Shown: positions 11,835-52,963 of the stretch, piece by piece | Layout of the letters: every line of letters begins with the position of its first letter | Numbering within the stretch: position 1 is the first letter of the stretch | IMG/VR virus record: IMGVR_UViG_3300020213_000001 | Source of the DNA: a virus | Length of the DNA stretch: 64,000 nt | Direction: 5' to 3' (one strand) | Made by a program: the position numbers and the translations under genes | Notes under the pieces: generated by a model | What the model was told of the DNA's origin: nothing | Seen by the model: only the letters and a program-made list of their open reading frames with translations | Database searches by the model: none

Positions 11835-12047
11835 TCAAAACGAGTCATTTACTTTAAATGTTGCTTGAATATTTAGGAATTTAATAGGACTATAAGATTC
11901 AAACTCAATATATAGTGTACCGTTTTCAATGTAATGTTTTTTTAAAACGCCTACTAGCTCTTCCTTATCGCCCGTACCAAAGTAAACCTTGTTTGATTTA
12001 TCACGCCTACAGCCGTTTATTTGAAGATATATATCTACTAAGTTCAT
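11835..12047 (-). CDS. Hypothetical protein
   Basis: ATGA-coupled ORF in small-gene run. Confidence 0.55.
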   Translation of the reverse strand: MNLVDIYLQINGCRRDKSNKVYFGTGDKEELVGVLKKHYIENGTLYIEFESYSPIKFLNIQATFKVNDSF

Positions 12048-12250
12048 CTCTTTTTCCCAAATATTCTCATGATTTTACTACAAACCTTCTTATACCCAGG
12101 ATCTGGCTTGTTTTCTTCTACTGGAGTATTTTTGTACGTCCTGTGTAGTGAATCACCCAAAGATGCTGAGTTTTGAAAGAAGTCGCCTTTACCTTCAGAA
12201 GACTCTTCCTCTACTTCCTTAACTCCGTCAGCGTGTATTTCATATTTCAT
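12044..12250 (-). CDS. Hypothetical protein
   Basis: ATGA-coupled ORF. Confidence 0.55.
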   Translation of the reverse strand: MKYEIHADGVKEVEEESSEGKGDFFQNSASLGDSLHRTYKNTPVEENKPDPGYKKVCSKIMRIFGKKR

Positions 12251-25322: not shown

Positions 25323-25500
25323 TCACCCCCCTTTCTTGCCGCAACTCGGTCCCTCCAATCCCCCACCCAATTACGACAGTTGCAATTATTGAACCCAGGG
25401 CGACACTAAGAATAATTGTTCCAGCCACTAAGTGGCGGGGTGTGGTGAAGATCATCGCCGCGATCGCAATAACTACTTCGATGATAAGAATTGTAATCAT
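25312..25500 (-). CDS. Small membrane protein
   Basis: Two hydrophobic helices; ATGA overlap with upstream ORF. Confidence 0.55.
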   Translation of the reverse strand: MITILIIEVVIAIAAMIFTTPRHLVAGTIILSVALGSIIATVVIGWGIGGTELRQERGVNER

Positions 25501-25619
25501 GTGCCGTCACCGCTGCCATCGCCGCCCTCGCCGCTGTGGCCATAGCCGCTACCGCTGCCGTAGCCACGGCCGTCGCCGTGCCCGATCATGCTGTGAGCGT
25601 CCTCTAGTTCTTTAGCCAT
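25497..25619 (-). CDS. Gly-rich repeat peptide, paralog 2 (40 aa)
   Basis: MAKELEDAHSMIGHGDGRGYGSGSGYGHSGEGGDGSGDGT; GGAGAG SD. Confidence 0.55.
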   Translation of the reverse strand: MAKELEDAHSMIGHGDGRGYGSGSGYGHSGEGGDGSGDGT

Positions 25620-25643
25620 TTGCTCTCCTTGGTTTTGCCGTGG

Positions 25644-25907
25644 TCATGCGCCGTCGCCGTAGCCGTCTCCATCGCCACCATCGCCGTCTCCATAACCATC
25701 CCCATCCCCATCTCCATCTCCGTCGCCTTCGCCGTCGCCGCTGTAGCCAAAGCCATAGCCGTCTCCAAAGCCGTCTCCGTAGCCGCCAAAGCCGTCTCCG
25801 CTGCCGTCGCCGTAGCGGTCGCCGTCGTCTCCGTAGCCGCGAAAGCCACTGCCCTTGCCGTCGCCGCGGCCGACAGCGCTGTAAGCGTTGTCTAGCTCTT
25901 TGGCCAC
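25644..25907 (-). CDS. Gly/Asp/Tyr-rich (GDGYG) repeat protein, paralog 1
   Basis: MAKELDNAYSAVG then (G-D/Y)n repeats. Confidence 0.6.
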   Translation of the reverse strand: MAKELDNAYSAVGRGDGKGSGFRGYGDDGDRYGDGSGDGFGGYGDGFGDGYGFGYSGDGEGDGDGDGDGDGYGDGDGGDGDGYGDGA

Positions 25908-27261: not shown

Positions 27262-27341
27262 TGGTACGACATCAGAGAATCGAACCCTGATTTCAAGTGT
27301 TTATAAGACACTTCCGGTAAACCACCAGCCCGCCATGTCGC
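27262..27341 (-). tRNA. tRNA-Ile(UAU)
   Basis: Acceptor GCGACAT/ATGTCGT-A-CCA, anticodon arm AGTGT-CTTATAA-ACACT, T arm CAGGG-TTCGATT-CTCTG; atypical position 8 and D arm. Confidence 0.8.
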
Positions 27342-28514: not shown

Positions 28515-29105
28515 TTAAACCCCACCTATTACTTGGTTGAGAAATTTAAGATTCAAGGCTTGCTGTTTAAGCTTGGCAGCAATGTAAATAGCATCTTCAA
28601 CATCACTGGAAGCATTGGCGGCAGCAAAGGCAGCTTGGGCAGCACCTTCGACGGCATAGTGGGCAGCGGCGTTGGTAAAAAAGACATAGTCGGCATTAGT
28701 GGCAATGAATGCAATGGGGGAATCATCGGCAGCATCGCGGGTATAGCAGAAGGCAACACACTTCGCTTTTACACGCTTTTTAACCTCTAATATTTGAGCA
28801 TCTGTCAAGCTATCGAAATCATTAACAGTCTTAAGAAAATTGATGCAATTGCTAAGGCTCTTATCACCTTTATATTTTTCTTCAAAAATATGTACTACGC
28901 TTTCAATGCATAGCATTGCCCATTTAACTAGTTGATTCTTGGTTAATACCCTTTTTGCAACCCAAACTTTATCGTCGTAGTTGACATTAGGTAAGTACAG
29001 GAAATCACTAAAGCTTCCGTCAAAATCAGCATTGTAATTCAGAAAATGTTCATATCTGTCAGCACAAGGCTCTAGGTTTTTCAGTACTTCTTTATTGATT
29101 TGCAT
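28515..29105 (-). CDS. Imm5-like array paralog 1
   Basis: MQINKEVLKNLEPC...WAMLCIESVVHIFE...Ala-rich core...QQALNLKFL. Confidence 0.8.
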   Translation of the reverse strand: MQINKEVLKNLEPCADRYEHFLNYNADFDGSFSDFLYLPNVNYDDKVWVAKRVLTKNQLVKWAMLCIESVVHIFEEKYKGDKSLSNCINFLKTVNDFDSLTDAQILEVKKRVKAKCVAFCYTRDAADDSPIAFIATNADYVFFTNAAAHYAVEGAAQAAFAAANASSDVEDAIYIAAKLKQQALNLKFLNQVIGGV

Positions 29106-29116
29106 AAATATCCTGG

Positions 29117-29746
29117 TTAAGCACTGATTGCTTGTTTCAAAAACTGAAGGTTAAGGGCTTGCTGTTTAAGACTGGCAGCGGCAGCATCTTCACCGTAAAT
29201 GTCACAATAACCAAGGGTATCATCATAGGTAGCTTCGGCGGCGTAACACAAGACGTGGGAGGCAACATCGACAGCATAGGCGGCAGCATAGGAATCACAG
29301 TAGGAGACGTGGACAAGGGCGGCAACATGGGAAACATTGAGAGCGTGGGCAGCGTGGCCAACAAAGATGTCAGGGTCGGTAGAAGCACGGGCAACAGCAA
29401 GGGCGAGATCTCTGTGCTTTTTAAGCTCTAATGCTTGATCAATTGTCAAGTTATTAAAATCCTTAACTGTTTTAAGGTAATTGATACAATTAATAACATG
29501 TTTATAATCCGGGTGTTGTTCTTCAAAAATATGCACTACGCTTTCAGCGCATAGCGTTGCCCAGCTAATGGCTTGGTTCTTGTTTAATACCCTTTTTGCA
29601 ACCCAAATTTTATCGACATATTCAAGATTGGGTAATTCCATGAATTCGCTAAGACTTCCATCAAAATCAGCGTGATGTTTTAGAAAAACCTTATACCTGT
29701 AATAACAGGGTTTAAGGCTTTTCAAGAATTCTTTATTAATTTGCAT
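29117..29746 (-). CDS. Imm5-like array paralog 2
   Basis: Same architecture; start moved to MQINKE at 29746. Confidence 0.8.
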   Translation of the reverse strand: MQINKEFLKSLKPCYYRYKVFLKHHADFDGSLSEFMELPNLEYVDKIWVAKRVLNKNQAISWATLCAESVVHIFEEQHPDYKHVINCINYLKTVKDFNNLTIDQALELKKHRDLALAVARASTDPDIFVGHAAHALNVSHVAALVHVSYCDSYAAAYAVDVASHVLCYAAEATYDDTLGYCDIYGEDAAAASLKQQALNLQFLKQAISA

Positions 29747-29764
29747 AAATCCCTCTCTCAAGCC

Positions 29765-29801: not shown

Positions 29802-30431
29802 CTAATTAATCACTTGCTTAAGAAACTGAAGATTTAAGGCTTCTTGATTTTCAAGAGCAGCAATTTTATTAGAATCACAGACGGCATGGGTGGCATAGGA
29901 AGCATAGATGGCAGCTTGGGCAGCATGGGCGGCATAGATGACAGCTTGGAAAGAGGTGGAGGCAAAGGTGGCAGAATGGGCGGCAGCATGGGCAGAGGTG
30001 GCGGCATAGTTGGCAGCATGGGCGGTGGCATTGGTAGAAAAGAGAGTAGCACTGGCGGCTGCATGGGCAGCATCGGTGGCAGCAGAGGTGGCTATTTTAT
30101 GCTTCTTAATCTCTAATGGTTGACAATTGATCAAGCGGTCGAAATCATTAATAGATTTAAGGTAGTTGATGCAATCACTAAGGCGCTTGTCATCTGGATA
30201 TTTTGCTTCAAACATATGTACAACACTTTCAGCGCATAGCGTTGCCCATTTAACGGCTTTATTTTTGTTTAAAATCTCCCTTGCAACCCAAATTTTATCG
30301 TCGTAGTTGACATTAGGTAAGTCAAGGAATTCACTAAAGCTTCCGTTAAACTCACCGTGATGTTTTATAAAATGCTCATACCTGTCGGTAAAAAGGTTAA
30401 TACTTTTCAAGAATTCTTTGTTAATTTGCAT
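29802..30431 (-). CDS. Imm5-like array paralog 3
   Basis: Same architecture, Ala/His/Thr-rich core. Confidence 0.8.
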   Translation of the reverse strand: MQINKEFLKSINLFTDRYEHFIKHHGEFNGSFSEFLDLPNVNYDDKIWVAREILNKNKAVKWATLCAESVVHMFEAKYPDDKRLSDCINYLKSINDFDRLINCQPLEIKKHKIATSAATDAAHAAASATLFSTNATAHAANYAATSAHAAAHSATFASTSFQAVIYAAHAAQAAIYASYATHAVCDSNKIAALENQEALNLQFLKQVIN

Positions 30432-30498: not shown

Positions 30499-31152
30499 CT
30501 AATTAATCACTTGTTTTAGAAACTTAATATTTAAGGCTTCTTGACTTTCTTGAGCAGCAATTTTATTAGAATCACTAGCATCGGTGGTGGCATAGAAGGC
30601 AGCTTGGACAGCATAGCACTCAGTATCGGCGACATCAACATCGATGTCATAGGCAGCAAGGGTGGCATAGGCGGCTTCACGGACAGCGGCACGGACAGCG
30701 GCACCGACAGCATCGGCGGCACCGGCAGCATAGGGGGCACGGGAACAATAGGCGGTAAGAGAGACAGCATAGGGGCCACCAGCGGCAACGAAACAAGCAG
30801 CTCGGGAGGCTTCTTCATGTCTCTTAATCTCTGATGCTTGATCATTTGTCAAATTATCAAAATCCTTAACTGTTTTAAGGTAGCTAATGCAATCACTAAG
30901 ACTCTGGTTATCAGGGTATTCTTTCTCAAAAATATGAACAACGCTTTCAGCGCATAGCGTTGCCCACTTAACAGCTTGATTCTTGGTTAAAACTCTCCTT
31001 GCAATCCAGATTTTATCGACATATTCAAGATTGGGTAGGTCCAGGAAATCATTAAGACTTCCGCTAAACTCACCGTGATGTTCTAGGAAATGCTTATACC
31101 TGTTGTCGCAAGGGTTTAGGCTTTTCAATACGTCTTTGTTGATCTTCATCAT
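30499..31152 (-). CDS. Imm5-like array paralog 4
   Basis: MMKINKDVLKSLNPC...; start moved to 31152. Confidence 0.8.
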   Translation of the reverse strand: MMKINKDVLKSLNPCDNRYKHFLEHHGEFSGSLNDFLDLPNLEYVDKIWIARRVLTKNQAVKWATLCAESVVHIFEKEYPDNQSLSDCISYLKTVKDFDNLTNDQASEIKRHEEASRAACFVAAGGPYAVSLTAYCSRAPYAAGAADAVGAAVRAAVREAAYATLAAYDIDVDVADTECYAVQAAFYATTDASDSNKIAAQESQEALNIKFLKQVIN

Positions 31153-31161
31153 CTTTCCCTC

Positions 31162-31190
31162 ATTATCACATATAATACCAGACATGTCAA
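31162..31190 (-). promoter_or_regulatory. Sigma70-type promoter before paralog 4
   Basis: TTGACA-17 nt-GATAAT. Confidence 0.65.
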
Positions 31191-31200
31191 TATAATTCCA

Positions 31201-31857
31201 CTAATTAATCACTTGTTTAAGAAACTTAATGTTAAGAGCTTGTTGGTTATGCTTGGAAGCATCATCAATAGAATCCCGATCATCATAGGTGGCAGCATAG
31301 GTGGCATAGTCGGCAGCATAGTCGGCAGCATAGCTGGTAGCATAGGTGGCAACATCGACAGCATAGCGTACTTCACGAGCGGCAGCAAAGACGGCATAGT
31401 AGGCAGCACGAGCAGCATTGGTGGCACCGATGGCGGCGATGGCGGCACAACGGACAGCATAGGCAGCATCAGCGGCAGCTTCGATGGCAAAGCGGGCAGC
31501 ATGGACAGCTCGGGCATCACTTATATGTCTCTTAATCTCTGATGCTTGATCAACTGTCAAGTTATCGAAATCATTAACTGTTTTAAGGTAGTTGATGCAA
31601 TCTCTAATGCATCTTTCATCCGGGTATTCTTTTTCAAAAACATGTACTACGCTTTCAGCACAAAGAATTGCCCAGTTAATGGCTTGATTCCTTGTTAAAA
31701 CTCTCCCTGCAACCCAGATTTTATCATTGTAGTCAAGATTAGGTAAGTCAAGGAATTCACTAAAACTACCGCTAAAATCAGCGTGACGCTCTAGAAAATG
31801 CCTATATCTGTCAACACAAGGCTCTAGGTTTTTCAGTACTTCTTTGTTAATTTGCAT
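31201..31857 (-). CDS. Imm5-like array paralog 5
   Basis: Same architecture; YAAD 12-bp repeats. Confidence 0.8.
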   Translation of the reverse strand: MQINKEVLKNLEPCVDRYRHFLERHADFSGSFSEFLDLPNLDYNDKIWVAGRVLTRNQAINWAILCAESVVHVFEKEYPDERCIRDCINYLKTVNDFDNLTVDQASEIKRHISDARAVHAARFAIEAAADAAYAVRCAAIAAIGATNAARAAYYAVFAAAREVRYAVDVATYATSYAADYAADYATYAATYDDRDSIDDASKHNQQALNIKFLKQVIN

Positions 31858-31898: not shown

Positions 31899-32477
31899 TT
31901 ACAAACTACATGCCATTCTCAAAAACTGAATGTTAAGCTCTTGCTGGTTATTCCCGGCAGCGTCAGCATCTTCACCGGTATCAGCGGCTGCAAGGAGGGC
32001 AGCATAGACGGCATAGGAGGCAGAACGGGCGGCATAGTGGAAGGCATAATTGGCTGCATAGTTGACAGCATAGAGGGCATAATAGGCAGTATAGAGGGCA
32101 TAGTGGACAGCACTGGCGACATAGTTGACTCCGCTAATATCTTCATGTTTTTTTATTTCCCACTTTTCAGTATCAGTTAAGTTATTGAAATCCTTAATAG
32201 ACTTAAGGAAATTGATACATTTGCTAAGACGTTTATTGCCTGGATAATTAGCCTCAAAAATATACATAACACTTTCGGCACAGAGAATAGCCCAGCTAAC
32301 AGCTTGATTTTTAGTTAAAACCTTTTCTGCAATCAAAACTTTATCTTCATAACTAATAGTACCTAGGTCCAGGAATTCAATAAAATTACCATCAAAATCA
32401 GAGTGGTGTTCTAGAAAATGCTTATATCTATCATCACAAGGATTTAGGCTTTTCAAGAATTCTTTATTGATTTGCAT
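31899..32477 (-). CDS. Imm5-like array paralog 6
   Basis: Same architecture, Tyr-rich core. Confidence 0.8.
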   Translation of the reverse strand: MQINKEFLKSLNPCDDRYKHFLEHHSDFDGNFIEFLDLGTISYEDKVLIAEKVLTKNQAVSWAILCAESVMYIFEANYPGNKRLSKCINFLKSIKDFNNLTDTEKWEIKKHEDISGVNYVASAVHYALYTAYYALYAVNYAANYAFHYAARSASYAVYAALLAAADTGEDADAAGNNQQELNIQFLRMACSL

Positions 32478-32489
32478 ATGGAGTCCTTT

Positions 32490-33161
32490 TCAAACACTAG
32501 TTACTTGTTTAAGAAACTGAAGGTTAAGAGCTTGTTGGCTATACTTGGCAGCATAATTAATAGAATCCCGATCATCGTAGGTGGCAGCATAGTTGGTAGC
32601 AGAGGTGGCAGCATAGTTGGTAGCAGAGGTGGCAGCAGAGGTGGCATAGCGTGCTTCACGAGCGGCAGCACCGGCAGCATAGATGGCAGCTTGGACAGCA
32701 TTGGCGGCACCAGAGGCGGCATAGGCGGCACAGCGGACAGCATAGGCAGCATTGGCGGCGGCATAGGTGGCATTGGTGGCATAGACGGTGGCATTGGCAG
32801 AAAAGAAAGCAGCATTGGCGGCCATTCCATGCTTCTTAATCTCTAATGCCTGGGCATTTGTCAAGTTATTAAAATCATTAATAGATTTAAGGTAGCTGAT
32901 GCAATCACTAAGACGTTTATCGTCAGGACGCTTATCTTCAAAAATATGCACAACACTGTCAACACAAAGAACTGACCATTTAACTAGTTGATTCTTGGTT
33001 AAAACTCTCACAGCAACCCAGATTTTATCTTCATAGTCAAGATTAGGTAAGTCCATGAATTCGCTAAAGCTTCCGTTAAACTCACCGTGGTGTTTTAGAA
33101 AATGCTTATATCTATCAGTGCAAGGGTTAAGGCTTTTGAGTAATTCTTTATTGATTTGCAT
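32490..33161 (-). CDS. Imm5-like array paralog 7
   Basis: Same architecture; 24-bp ATSATNYA tandem repeat. Confidence 0.8.
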   Translation of the reverse strand: MQINKELLKSLNPCTDRYKHFLKHHGEFNGSFSEFMDLPNLDYEDKIWVAVRVLTKNQLVKWSVLCVDSVVHIFEDKRPDDKRLSDCISYLKSINDFNNLTNAQALEIKKHGMAANAAFFSANATVYATNATYAAANAAYAVRCAAYAASGAANAVQAAIYAAGAAAREARYATSAATSATNYAATSATNYAATYDDRDSINYAAKYSQQALNLQFLKQVTSV

Positions 33162-33170
33162 AAAAGCTTC

Positions 33171-33677
33171 CTAATACTTATTACTATTTATACCACTTCT
33201 AATAACTATATCAATTTCCTTGCGACAATAGCGAGTTACGTTTTCAAAAACCCTTATTTTTCCATCCATGAAGCTTTCTAGAGCAGTTAACATGTCAATT
33301 CTGTCTTGAGCAGATACATAGTTAATCTGACGCTGCAAAAAAGCCTCTCGAACGTGAGTGCTGTCTTTCATCTTACTTTCTTTCAAAAACAAGGGATATA
33401 GATCAAGAATAGTCTCTGACTTGGCTTCCAATAGGGCTTTTTTGGCTTTGGTTATCTCATACCCTATAAGACTCAGATGCTTCCTAGCTTGTCTATATCC
33501 CTCGTTAAATGTGTATTCAAGTTCAGAATAGGTCGCAGGGTTTACTACCTTTGCCTCAATCAATCTGTGTTCAGCCTCTCTAATAGAGCTGATATCAAGA
33601 CGTACTTCTGGCGTATTACCGAACGCTGGAATGGTTAGCTCTGCACGTTCGGTGTAATTAGAAGGTAGTGTTTGCAT
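33171..33677 (-). CDS. Helical protein, possibly UvsY-like recombination mediator
   Basis: 168 aa helical ORF directly after SSB; function is a positional inference only. Confidence 0.4.
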   Translation of the reverse strand: MQTLPSNYTERAELTIPAFGNTPEVRLDISSIREAEHRLIEAKVVNPATYSELEYTFNEGYRQARKHLSLIGYEITKAKKALLEAKSETILDLYPLFLKESKMKDSTHVREAFLQRQINYVSAQDRIDMLTALESFMDGKIRVFENVTRYCRKEIDIVIRSGINSNKY

Positions 33678-34756
33678 TATCCCTCAAGAGATTTCAAGAA
33701 ATCTTCATCACTCAAGCTATTAAGATCTTCCGCTGCCGGTGGAGCATCTTTCTTGGGAGTGTTTAGGACTTCTATTTTAGCCTTAGTGGCAGCTTTAGCT
33801 TCTAGGGCAGCTTTAGCTTCTAGGGCAGCCTTAGCTTCTAGGGCAGCTTTAGCCTTGCTTTCTGCGAGTGCCTGAGCCGCCTTGACGTAAGTATCTTCAG
33901 AATGATTAGACTGTTCTTCATCATCACCATTGTCTGAAGGTGTAGATCCATCTGAGTCTCCTAGGATTCGCTCCAAAACAATCGCGCCTTCCTGTTCGCT
34001 ACGCTCGTAAGCAGCTACCATTTCAGCCACTTGTTCAGGATTGGGCATAGGATACATAGTGCTAAGCTCATAGGCCTCATCTGCTAGACGAGATAGAATG
34101 GCGGGAGTAAGAATGTGAGGCTCTGATTTTTCAACAATGCCGTATTCTGCTGTTTTTACCTTTGTTTTAGATTCTGTTACTTGGTAAGCAGTGTCCCTGT
34201 CCATTCCAGAACGGTTGAAGTTAATAAAGCGTCCGTCTTCAACCGAAAGCGGGTCTACACCCTCTCCCTGAAGTTGTTTAACCAGTGCTTTAAATGCATT
34301 CATTGCACGAGAGCCAAGCTTTAGAAGACCGATCTTACCGGAGGAATCCATGCCATTTGCATGGTGTTTGCTATCAACGTTGAAACGCTTAGTAGACTCT
34401 TCTAGATCTTTCAATTGCTTTTTAAGAGACTCAGGGATGGGCGCTTTAGCTTCAAATAGCTGCCTGGCTTGTTTTTTAGCCTCATCTTTCTGAATCTTAA
34501 GACCTTCGGCTCGGTTATAGGCCGCACAGTCCCTTTCTACCATTTTACTCCTGAAGTTAACGTCACGAGGTGAAACGAAAGGGCGCTGCCTGCCTTTTGT
34601 GTCCTTATAACCCCATACAACGCGATAGTAGACACTCCAATAACCCTTGTCTGCTAGTTTACCCATAGGAGGTAGGACTCGGAATAGGTTATCCCCGTCT
34701 TTAAATTTAAACACTTCTTTTTTGTCACCTGAATACCTTGCTTTGCCGACTTTCAT
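33677..34756 (-). CDS. Single-stranded DNA-binding protein (gp32-like)
   Basis: FKFKDGDNLFRVLPP N-terminus, DPLSVEDGRF, acidic tail SDEDFLKSLEG. Confidence 0.7.
   Translation of the reverse strand: MKVGKARYSGDKKEVFKFKDGDNLFRVLPPMGKLADKGYWSVYYRVVWGYKDTKGRQRPFVSPRDVNFRSKMVERDCAAYNRAEGLKIQKDEAKKQARQLFEAKAPIPESLKKQLKDLEESTKRFNVDSKHHANGMDSSGKIGLLKLGSRAMNAFKALVKQLQGEGVDPLSVEDGRFINFNRSGMDRDTAYQVTESKTKVKTAEYGIVEKSEPHILTPAILSRLADEAYELSTMYPMPNPEQVAEMVAAYERSEQEGAIVLERILGDSDGSTPSDNGDDEEQSNHSEDTYVKAAQALAESKAKAALEAKAALEAKAALEAKAATKAKIEVLNTPKKDAPPAAEDLNSLSDEDFLKSLEG
33788..33854. repeat. 18-bp tandem repeat (AALEAK x3) in SSB linker
   Basis: GGCAGCTTTAGCTTCTAG repeats. Confidence 0.9.
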
Positions 34757-52622: not shown

Positions 52623-52963
52623 CCGATATTGATGTTTGCAGAACTTTGTCTGTTTTCAAAATTATAGCTGACGTTAGGTTGTATTCTTGCCCCAAGTGAC
52701 TTGAATCTAATTTTAGCAAACTTATTGGAATCAATATTTTTGCTGTAAGCAATGGCGGCAACGGCCCCTACCGCCCCCATAGTTGACTTATCTACATTAA
52801 TGGCTTTTAAGGCTTTCCTTTCTGCCGTTTTCCTGTACTCTTTAACTTCACTATAGCCAAGAATAGCCCTGTAAATGCCCGAAAATGCTTCCCTTTTTTC
52901 GTCAGCGTTACAAGTAGTTGAAAACAGTATAAAGATAATAACCATCATGTAACCATTATACAC
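52610..52963 (-). CDS. Exported hypothetical protein with C-terminal aromatic beta-signal-like end
   Basis: Signal-like N-terminus; ends ANINIGWEF; likely start 52948. Confidence 0.5.
   Translation of the reverse strand: MYNGYMMVIIFILFSTTCNADEKREAFSGIYRAILGYSEVKEYRKTAERKALKAINVDKSTMGAVGAVAAIAYSKNIDSNKFAKIRFKSLGARIQPNVSYNFENRQSSANINIGWEF

Follow-up and report, generated by a model that had tools for sequence, protein, structure and literature searches.

C- and T-ending codons dominate the variable cores of a phage array of Imm5-like genes

The seven-gene array and its products

The window, i.e., the whole 64-kb stretch of DNA analysed here, is part of a large phage genome. Its phage genes encode DnaE, an ATP-dependent ligase, a gp32-like protein, ribonucleotide reductase, SbcC/D-like proteins and a portal protein as well as one tRNA-Ile(UAU). 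The longest database contig with the window's proteins measures 154,932 bp, i.e., the window covers 64 kb of a phage genome of about 155 kb.

Between positions 28515 and 33161, seven genes are arranged head to tail on the minus strand. They share one layout: a conserved N-terminal scaffold of 111 residues is followed by a core of 66-97 residues and a conserved C-terminal cap (QQALNLQFLKQVI-like). The cores are unalignable among most of the seven paralogs. Paralog 1 spans 28515-29105 (core 28566-28772) and paralog 2 spans 29117-29761 (core 29165-29413), with the likely ATG start of the latter at 29746. They are followed by paralog 3 (29802-30431, core 29847-30098), paralog 4 (30499-31185, start likely at 31149, core 30544-30816), paralog 5 (31201-31857, core 31246-31524), paralog 6 (31899-32477, core 31947-32144) and paralog 7 (32490-33161, core 32538-32828). 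At least seven further paralogs are found on the database contig of the same phage. A tRNA-Ile gene with anticodon UAU (27262-27341, minus strand) is located just downstream of the array.

The Imm5_like profile PF21805, which has a gathering score of 25 bits, matches paralogs 1, 2 and 5 with 27.6, 33.1 and 25.2 bits, respectively. Paralogs 3, 4, 6 and 7 reach 18-23 bits, short of this score, yet share 48-58% identity with the others. Homologues in the databases carry PF21805 and some of them PF14423 (Imm5). The AlphaFold2 model of paralog 2, for which 43 homologues were available, is all-alpha. Here, the scaffold is predicted with pLDDT >90, the core forms three helices with a pLDDT of about 60, and the cap is a confident helix. 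Ala and Tyr co-occur in the cores at lags 3, 4, 7, 11 and 14, which points to heptad-like helices. No PDB entry matched the model significantly in a Foldseek comparison; the top-ranked one was the DUF416 protein 2q9r (probability 0.89, TM about 0.5).

In PHROGs, the Imm5-like phage family is listed as of unknown function. The array's neighbours are replication genes (ligase, gp32-like, DnaE) and unannotated genes, and no toxin domain was found among the ORFs scanned for domains. Imm5 has been described as a helical scaffold that is tied to deaminase and other toxin domains and possibly binds structurally different toxins (PMC3239186). The phage proteins resemble the Imm5 and Imm5_like immunity proteins (PF14423, PF21805) in their profile matches and in being mainly alpha-helical. 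On the other hand, they differ in their arrangement in phage tandem arrays of at least seven genes with no toxin gene seen adjoining, in their hypervariable repeat core and in the conserved C-terminal cap. Judged from sequence, they may reasonably be taken for a repertoire of variable binders, e.g., of host or competitor toxins.

Third-base usage in the cores

Within paralog 2, 78 of the 81 codons between 29168 and 29410 (minus strand) end in C or T, i.e., are NNY codons, the exceptions being TTG, GAA and GAA exactly as counted in an earlier note on this DNA. The binomial probability of this stretch is P = 2.9e-18 given the phage-wide NNY share of 0.53, and P = 8e-15 given the scaffold share of 0.59. 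The note had read the cores of paralogs 1 and 7 as similar and expected the same of the remainder. All seven cores are indeed alike, with 59/69, 78/83, 77/84, 82/91, 86/93, 60/66 and 90/97 NNY codons for paralogs 1 to 7, which amounts to 532/583 codons compared to 519/880 in the scaffolds. It also holds that four-fold sites rarely carry A or G: we count 342 pyrimidines (Y) vs 15 purines (R) in the cores and 150 Y vs 88 R in the scaffolds (Fisher P 2e-25). This is reflected in the Ala codons, for which the seven cores use GCC 116, GCT 80, GCA 5 and GCG 1 times, while the scaffolds show GCA 18, GCC 9 and GCT 17. Whether C or T is found at the third base of a core codon goes with the following base, i.e., T stands before G (1328 T vs 413 C) and mostly C otherwise.

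To locate comparable regions, we scanned all six frames of the whole 64 kb for 40-codon segments with at least 90% NNY. The matches are the seven cores, a Gly/Asp/Tyr repeat at about 25.6-25.9 kb and a 123-bp stretch at 52730-52852 on the plus strand. From the residues of the cores and the codon usage of the phage, an NNY share of 68% is predicted, while 91% is observed. Thus, both residue choice and synonymous choice contribute: about one third of the NNY excess stems from residue choice (few K/E/Q/M/W) and the rest from synonymous choice. The cores of the window are complex; they use at least 16 codon types, only 39% of their residues are Ala, and they are mutually unalignable, yet 96% of their four-fold sites are pyrimidines. 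An A-A-R-E-A/V-R-Y-A motif is conserved within the variable cores (around 32649-32660 in core 7 and likewise in cores 4 and 5) and accounts for most of the purine-ending codons (GAA, GCA/GTA) in the interior of these cores.

Codon positions 1 and 2 vary, including by transversions, as had been described. Six cores contain the frame GCC-NNC-TAT-GCC with nine different middle codons, namely CAC, AAC, GAC, TAC, ACC, TCC, GCC, TTC and AAT. The note's remark that NNY codons keep alternative frames open was also right, given that none of the seven cores has a stop in the in-register antisense frame and that the +1 sense frame shows 0-1 per core. Such open frames follow automatically from NNY coding, which accounts for the shadow ORFs. 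For instance, the ORF at 29132-29431 on the plus strand is the in-register antisense frame of core 2. As no stop codon is of the RNN type, this ORF is a side effect of NNY coding rather than a gene.

Sequence change across strains, paralogs and relatives

A strain locus (L006), which shares 99.1% identity with the window across 5.1 kb, covers four of the cores. In these, it differs only by three in-frame indels (9, 12 and 9 bp) and one TCC-to-AAC doublet. In core 7 of L006, 9 bp (32722-32730) are deleted between two copies of TGCCGCC, and 12 bp are perfectly duplicated in tandem at 32614. The 9-bp insertion in core 4 (about 30717-30722), which is found in L006 as well as in run X6, is a 7/9 copy of the neighbouring unit. 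Two of the L006 core indels are also present in X6. As expected for tandem-repeat slippage, the indels are multiples of 3, and two of them are bounded by direct repeats or duplicate one. For the doublet, which is located in core 6 (32017-32018), an exact 12-mer with AAC occurs in paralog 3 as a possible donor. Together, the in-frame indels at direct repeats and the doublet support the shuffling of repeat units that the earlier note had considered. The observed core indels, all of which are multiples of 3 and leave the genes open, speak against a phase-variation contingency locus.

Contigs from four sequencing runs carry cores identical to those of the window except for two 9-bp indels and one SNP, as far as population variation can be read from assembled contigs, in which rare variants are invisible. 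Many 'joints' between paralogs in contigs of public runs were excluded as evidence because they may be assembly-graph ambiguities. Outside the cores, the differences between window and L006 are clustered, as expected from gene conversion between paralogs. Cores 5 and 7 are recognisably homologous with about 80% nucleotide identity and show replacements of whole codons, e.g., ATC/TAT and GAT/TCT. Two further observations concern single paralogs. At both ends of paralog 6, L006 shows clustered substitutions and 1-nt indels relative to the window (31807, 31926-31944, 32456-32481), and its C-terminal cap is altered from …LNIQFLRMACSL to …LNLQFFENGM, which looks like conversion from another paralog or decay. 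In another contig (L003, positions 1-1655), the scaffold of paralog 4 is joined to the core of paralog 3 (window positions 30946/30227) with a loss of 718 bp while the sequence is otherwise identical; this junction stems from either natural unequal crossing-over or chimeric assembly.

Searches of isolated phages returned no more than a 127-bp low-complexity match by blastn, in Burkholderia phage BcepB1A, and no match by tblastn. A single-sequence scan of IMG/VR and a first scan of genome contigs likewise returned no homologues. Further IMG/VR and metagenome scans yielded 30 loci with about 57 homologues, mostly from microbial-mat samples and many in similar tandem arrays. Their 51 unique cores show Y at 95.6% of four-fold sites (2273/2378) compared to 62.8% in the scaffolds. 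The restriction is again evident for Ala (GCC 712, GCT 594, GCA 45, GCG 2), and other codon families are Y-ending as well, i.e., Val (GTC 121), Thr (ACC 230), Leu (CTY 61 vs 9), Arg (CGY 84 vs 25) and also Pro. In composition, the cores are dominated by Ala (39%), followed by Tyr (10%), Thr (8%), Ser (7%) and Asp (7%), while K+E+Q+M+W make up 3.4% of the core residues and 22.5% of the scaffold residues. The NNY pattern is also found in relatives whose scaffolds are only about 44% identical.

We then searched IMG/VR again using a profile built from distant members, which added 80 loci. About 130 homologues were examined overall. When 72 unique Ala-rich cores are arranged by their four-fold Y share, 47 show at least 80%, 4 less than 20% and 16 between 40 and 60%. 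The distribution is strongly multimodal (histogram 3,1,0,2,11,5,1,2,14,33), while that of the scaffolds is unimodal around 0.5. In every lineage the vocabulary is restricted to 1-2 codons per residue, and it differs between lineages. The core of L104 uses GCA for 21/21 Ala and TCA for 13/13 Ser together with TGG, GGG and AGG (NNY 5%), the core of L103 uses GCG for 42/43 Ala together with GAG and TGG, and that of L073 is written in GCG, TGG, CGG, TCG and ACG. The vocabulary of L040 comprises GCT, GTT and AGG. Three further lineages (L049, L045, L095) repeat GCG-GCT-NAT, i.e., a regular mix of G- and T-ending Ala codons, so that purity of the third-base class is not universal. The Ala/Trp/Ser/Glu/Arg cores of L104 (2832-3321), L103 (2703-3333) and L073 (2928-3447), with an NNY share of 5-8%, are a mirror image of the cores of the window.

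We also related the four-fold third-base class to the use of residues with NNY codons only (Tyr, Asp, Asn, His, Cys, Phe) or NNR codons only (Trp, Glu, Lys, Gln, Met), and the former tracks the latter (Spearman 0.47, P 4e-5). Given that more distant relatives use different but similarly small vocabularies, C/T is not obligatory. What holds in general is that a lineage inherits its third base along with the repeat unit while positions 1 and 2 vary.

Rates of change at the third base were compared in gene pairs. In pairs chosen for alignable, i.e., similar cores, which may be younger than their scaffolds via recombination, dN/dS is about 1-3 in the cores and 0.15-0.3 in the scaffolds. At four-fold sites of unchanged residues in ten such pairs, transitions are equally frequent in cores (18/280, 6.4%) and scaffolds (20/263, 7.6%), with CpG-type C-to-T change at the many C|G codon junctions possibly inflating the core value. 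Transversions, on the other hand, are about six-fold rarer in the cores (6/280, 2.1%) than in the scaffolds of the same pairs (33/263, 12.5%), such that the synonymous ts:tv counts of 18:6 and 20:33 differ significantly (Fisher P 0.003). A younger age of the cores through recombination would lower all synonymous change. With its deficit of transversions, the third position departs from neutral behaviour, in agreement with the earlier note, which had called the pattern the reverse of neutral drift.

In addition, we simulated slippage and ordinary mutation starting from an Ala/Tyr/Asp repeat until the observed Ala content of 39% was reached. The note had named such a simulation as the finding that could overturn its reading, and the outcome is divided. 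The observed level of 4.4% four-fold purines is indeed attained, but only at a dN/dS of about 3-10; at dN/dS = 1 the simulation yields 10-17%, and the measured values are about 1-3. Inheritance alone is probably not quite sufficient for the scarcity of purines. Third-position transversions and purines lie about 3-5-fold below the neutral expectation.

Predicted self-pairing and the probable source of the third-base restriction

The predicted folding energies of the real cores range from -25 to -61 kcal/mol, while synonymous recodings with the codon usage of the phage reach -54 to -96 kcal/mol. The respective z-scores are 3.4-7.7 in six of the seven cores; for core 7, the real sequence is at -46.7 and its recodings at -91.6 +/- 5.8 kcal/mol. 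According to these predictions, C/T-only coding would halve the self-pairing of the GC-rich repeats. Scanning single changes by their MFE effect, we observe that cores are stabilised on average by 1.55 kcal/mol for Y-to-A, 2.69 for Y-to-G and 0.19 for C/T swaps, while the same three classes are all near 0 in the scaffolds. The large effects of A and G and the small effect of C/T exchange mirror the substitution pattern of the cores. The same holds for cores of other dialects, 12/13 of which fold less stably than their recodings, among them the purine-only L104; the exception is the G-ending L073. Weaker folding is partly an automatic result of any restricted vocabulary. Furthermore, existing four-fold purines are not milder than random new ones (-1.27 vs -1.74 kcal/mol, P 0.12), and there is therefore no sign of structural filtering by selection. 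Based on these modelled energies, selection against self-pairing is a plausible reinforcement of C/T coding.

With regard to the earlier note, its NNY observation is real and stronger than first claimed, while its interpretation was half right: repeat-unit shuffling is supported, DGR-like mutagenesis is not. NNY codons with variation limited to positions 1 and 2 are the classic signature of a diversity-generating retroelement (DGR), and variable regions made up of NNY codons alone are routinely taken for the footprint of a DGR. A DGR or a similar templated mutator would rewrite AAY codons of a template to NNY codons in the cores. The cores do resemble DGR variable regions of the Bordetella phage BPP-1 Mtd type in their NNY coding, in the variation of positions 1 and 2 (nine middle codons in a fixed GCC-NNC-TAT-GCC frame), in stop-proof codons, in their phage context and in a probable ligand-binding surface. 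However, no reverse transcriptase domain (RVT_1) was found among the 20 window ORFs of at least 230 aa, nor in any of the virus records of seven relatives, six of which are at least 92% complete and include 41.8-kb and complete 157-kb genomes with terminal repeats. An adenine-tolerant scan of both strands of the window found no template repeat either. Its best candidates are other cores with at least 8 non-A mismatches per 60 nt, i.e., the mismatches are not adenine-specific. Here, it speaks for the DGR that the search in the phage itself covered the 64-kb window, with about 91 kb of its genome lying beyond.

Near-identical genomes, i.e., the contigs from the four runs and of the 99.1% strain, show no variable-region differences of the DGR kind; the cores are stable across the four samples apart from the few changes given above and nearly so in the strain. 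In addition, the entire block of 66-97 codons is NNY instead of scattered sites, and the modelled all-alpha fold would be neither a C-type lectin nor an Ig fold. Related lineages have NNR cores, which are not stop-proof and cannot be derived from AAY templates; neither the DGR logic nor stop avoidance as a cause agrees well with them. The DGR reading is largely refuted, and we rate it as extremely unlikely. 

Instead, we consider it moderately probable that the NNY coding of the cores arises from in-frame slippage and copy-and-paste within a small inherited codon set, combined with a constraint on third-base purines and without a reverse-transcriptase mutator. The core would be an in-frame, Ala/Tyr-rich helical repeat with heptad periodicity that evolves mainly as DNA units. 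Slippage between short direct repeats would add or remove 3-4 codons, and short patches would be copied between units and between paralogs, such that all core codons come from a small closed vocabulary descended from GCY/TAY/GAY-type units. Changes at positions 1 and 2 would then create new residues, which a surface either free or driven to vary would tolerate or favour, while the third base would merely be inherited and thus stay a pyrimidine (T before G, mostly C otherwise). Third-position purines would be held about 3-5-fold under the neutral expectation, most likely because each of them lets the GC-rich repeat self-pair as RNA or single-stranded DNA. Reverse transcriptase and template would play no part. 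Beyond what is directly observed, we infer inheritance and residue selection as the main cause, self-pairing as the property selected against, and the role as variable binders.

The closest competitor is a pure founder effect, in which the cores are worn GCY-type triplet or heptad repeats whose third positions, through youth or frequent resetting by expansion, have had too little time to drift and are not under selection. In its favour, the vocabulary of each lineage is tiny and often gives a residue a single codon, as in the GCA-only and GCG-only cores, slippage and conversion are directly seen, existing purines are structurally no milder than random ones, and simulations with heavy slippage or dN/dS of at least 3 often attain the observed purine level. 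What speaks against it is that the complex, unalignable cores with at least 16 codon types and 39% Ala are still 96% Y at four-fold sites, that the measured core dN/dS of about 1-3 lies where the simulation predicts 7-17% purines, and that synonymous ts:tv differs between cores and scaffolds (18:6 vs 20:33). Moreover, the NNY dialect persists across relatives with saturated synonymous sites in their scaffolds, and Y-dialect cores outnumber R-dialect cores by 47 to 4. We thus regard the founder effect as possible, if doubtful. The existence of the R dialect, in the form of NNR-only cores in relatives, speaks in turn against translational selection, i.e., the idea that the cores fit the G34/Q34/I34 tRNAs reading NNY, e.g., because NNR-reading tRNAs are scarce or attacked in infection. 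In favour of it, wobble decoding naturally divides third bases into purines and pyrimidines, the bias is seen in all codon families, AT-rich ones among them (Leu CTY 61 vs TTR/CTR 9; Arg CGY 84 vs 25), and a phage tRNA-Ile(UAU) adjoins the array. But the scaffold of the same mRNA has 41% NNR codons and 22-24% K/E/Q/M/W, so translation would stall anyway, and C vs T is set by the next base and not by the codon family alone; this makes translational selection highly improbable.

Selection for open alternative frames, be it for an overlapping antisense or +1 gene or for an invertible cassette readable both ways, would fit the absence of in-register antisense stops from the seven cores, the 0-1 stops in the +1 frame and the reduced synonymous change, which is the usual signature of overlapping genes. 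Third-base C/T changes, however, alter residues in both alternative frames, yet they are equally frequent in cores and scaffolds. An inverted (RNN) core between scaffolds is found in none of about 60 close homologues, NNR-dialect cores do not keep the frames open, and open frames are automatic from NNY anyway, such that this reading is hardly credible. One could also think of a codon-phase process, independent of reverse transcriptase, that rewrites positions 1 and 2 and copies the third base, with templated patch repair from in-phase neighbours as candidate. We judge this to be quite improbable. If true, phages free of retroelements would diversify binders by a built-in mechanism of their own, whose design rule would be the all-Y/all-R purity of the third base. 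Restriction-site or Shine-Dalgarno avoidance, out-of-phase microhomology, R-loops and Rho loading were set aside by reasoning alone, since none of them explains the avoidance of both A and G across all codon families.

With the slippage and copy-and-paste reading, an NNY footprint can arise without a retroelement, from in-frame repeat turnover in a closed codon vocabulary. Discriminators from a DGR would be a whole block vs scattered sites, sister cores in an NNR dialect, cores that stay the same between samples and indels in multiples of 3. Which residues can be reached (Tyr/Asp/Asn vs Trp/Glu/Arg) would be decided by the third-base class that the repeat was founded with, and this would link repeat DNA dynamics to the protein alphabet. 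The phage Imm5-like proteins form a large unstudied set, in arrays of at least seven per genome and with cores varying like a restricted-alphabet binder library, and such arrays are candidate phage repertoires for counter-defence or against toxins.

Restricted third bases are also known from silk genes. For spidroin repeats, a third-position bias and suppressed synonymous change have been attributed to mRNA structure or concerted evolution (PMC3563967). Spidroins and fibroins share with the phage cores the Ala-rich, GC-rich in-frame repeats, the restricted third base and fewer synonymous changes than in the termini. In contrast, silk repeats are uniform, biased to A/T and part of eukaryotic structural genes, while the phage cores diversify at positions 1 and 2 and keep to one purine/pyrimidine class. 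In functional analogy only, the cores also resemble synthetic binder libraries. Fellouse, Wiesmann and Sidhu (2004) reportedly built such libraries from Tyr, Ser, Ala and Asp using the degenerate codon KMT. The simplest natural cores share nearly the same alphabet (Ala, Tyr, Asp, with Ser/Thr/Asn) and are written in G/T-A/C-Y codons.

Two other repeats of the window are of note for their codon usage. The gp32-like protein (33677-34756, minus strand) ends in C-terminal AKAALE repeats, in which the Ala codons obey the GCT-GCC rule while Lys, Glu and Leu codons are purine-ending. At 25500-25907 (minus strand), two small ORFs with Gly/Asp/Tyr repeats (GDGYGDG...) and about 80% NNY lie in a GC-rich island (GC 0.49). 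Their Gly codons are GGC 24, GGA 8, GGT 2 and GGG 2, and a similar repeat is present in a relative (L002, about 11967-12134).
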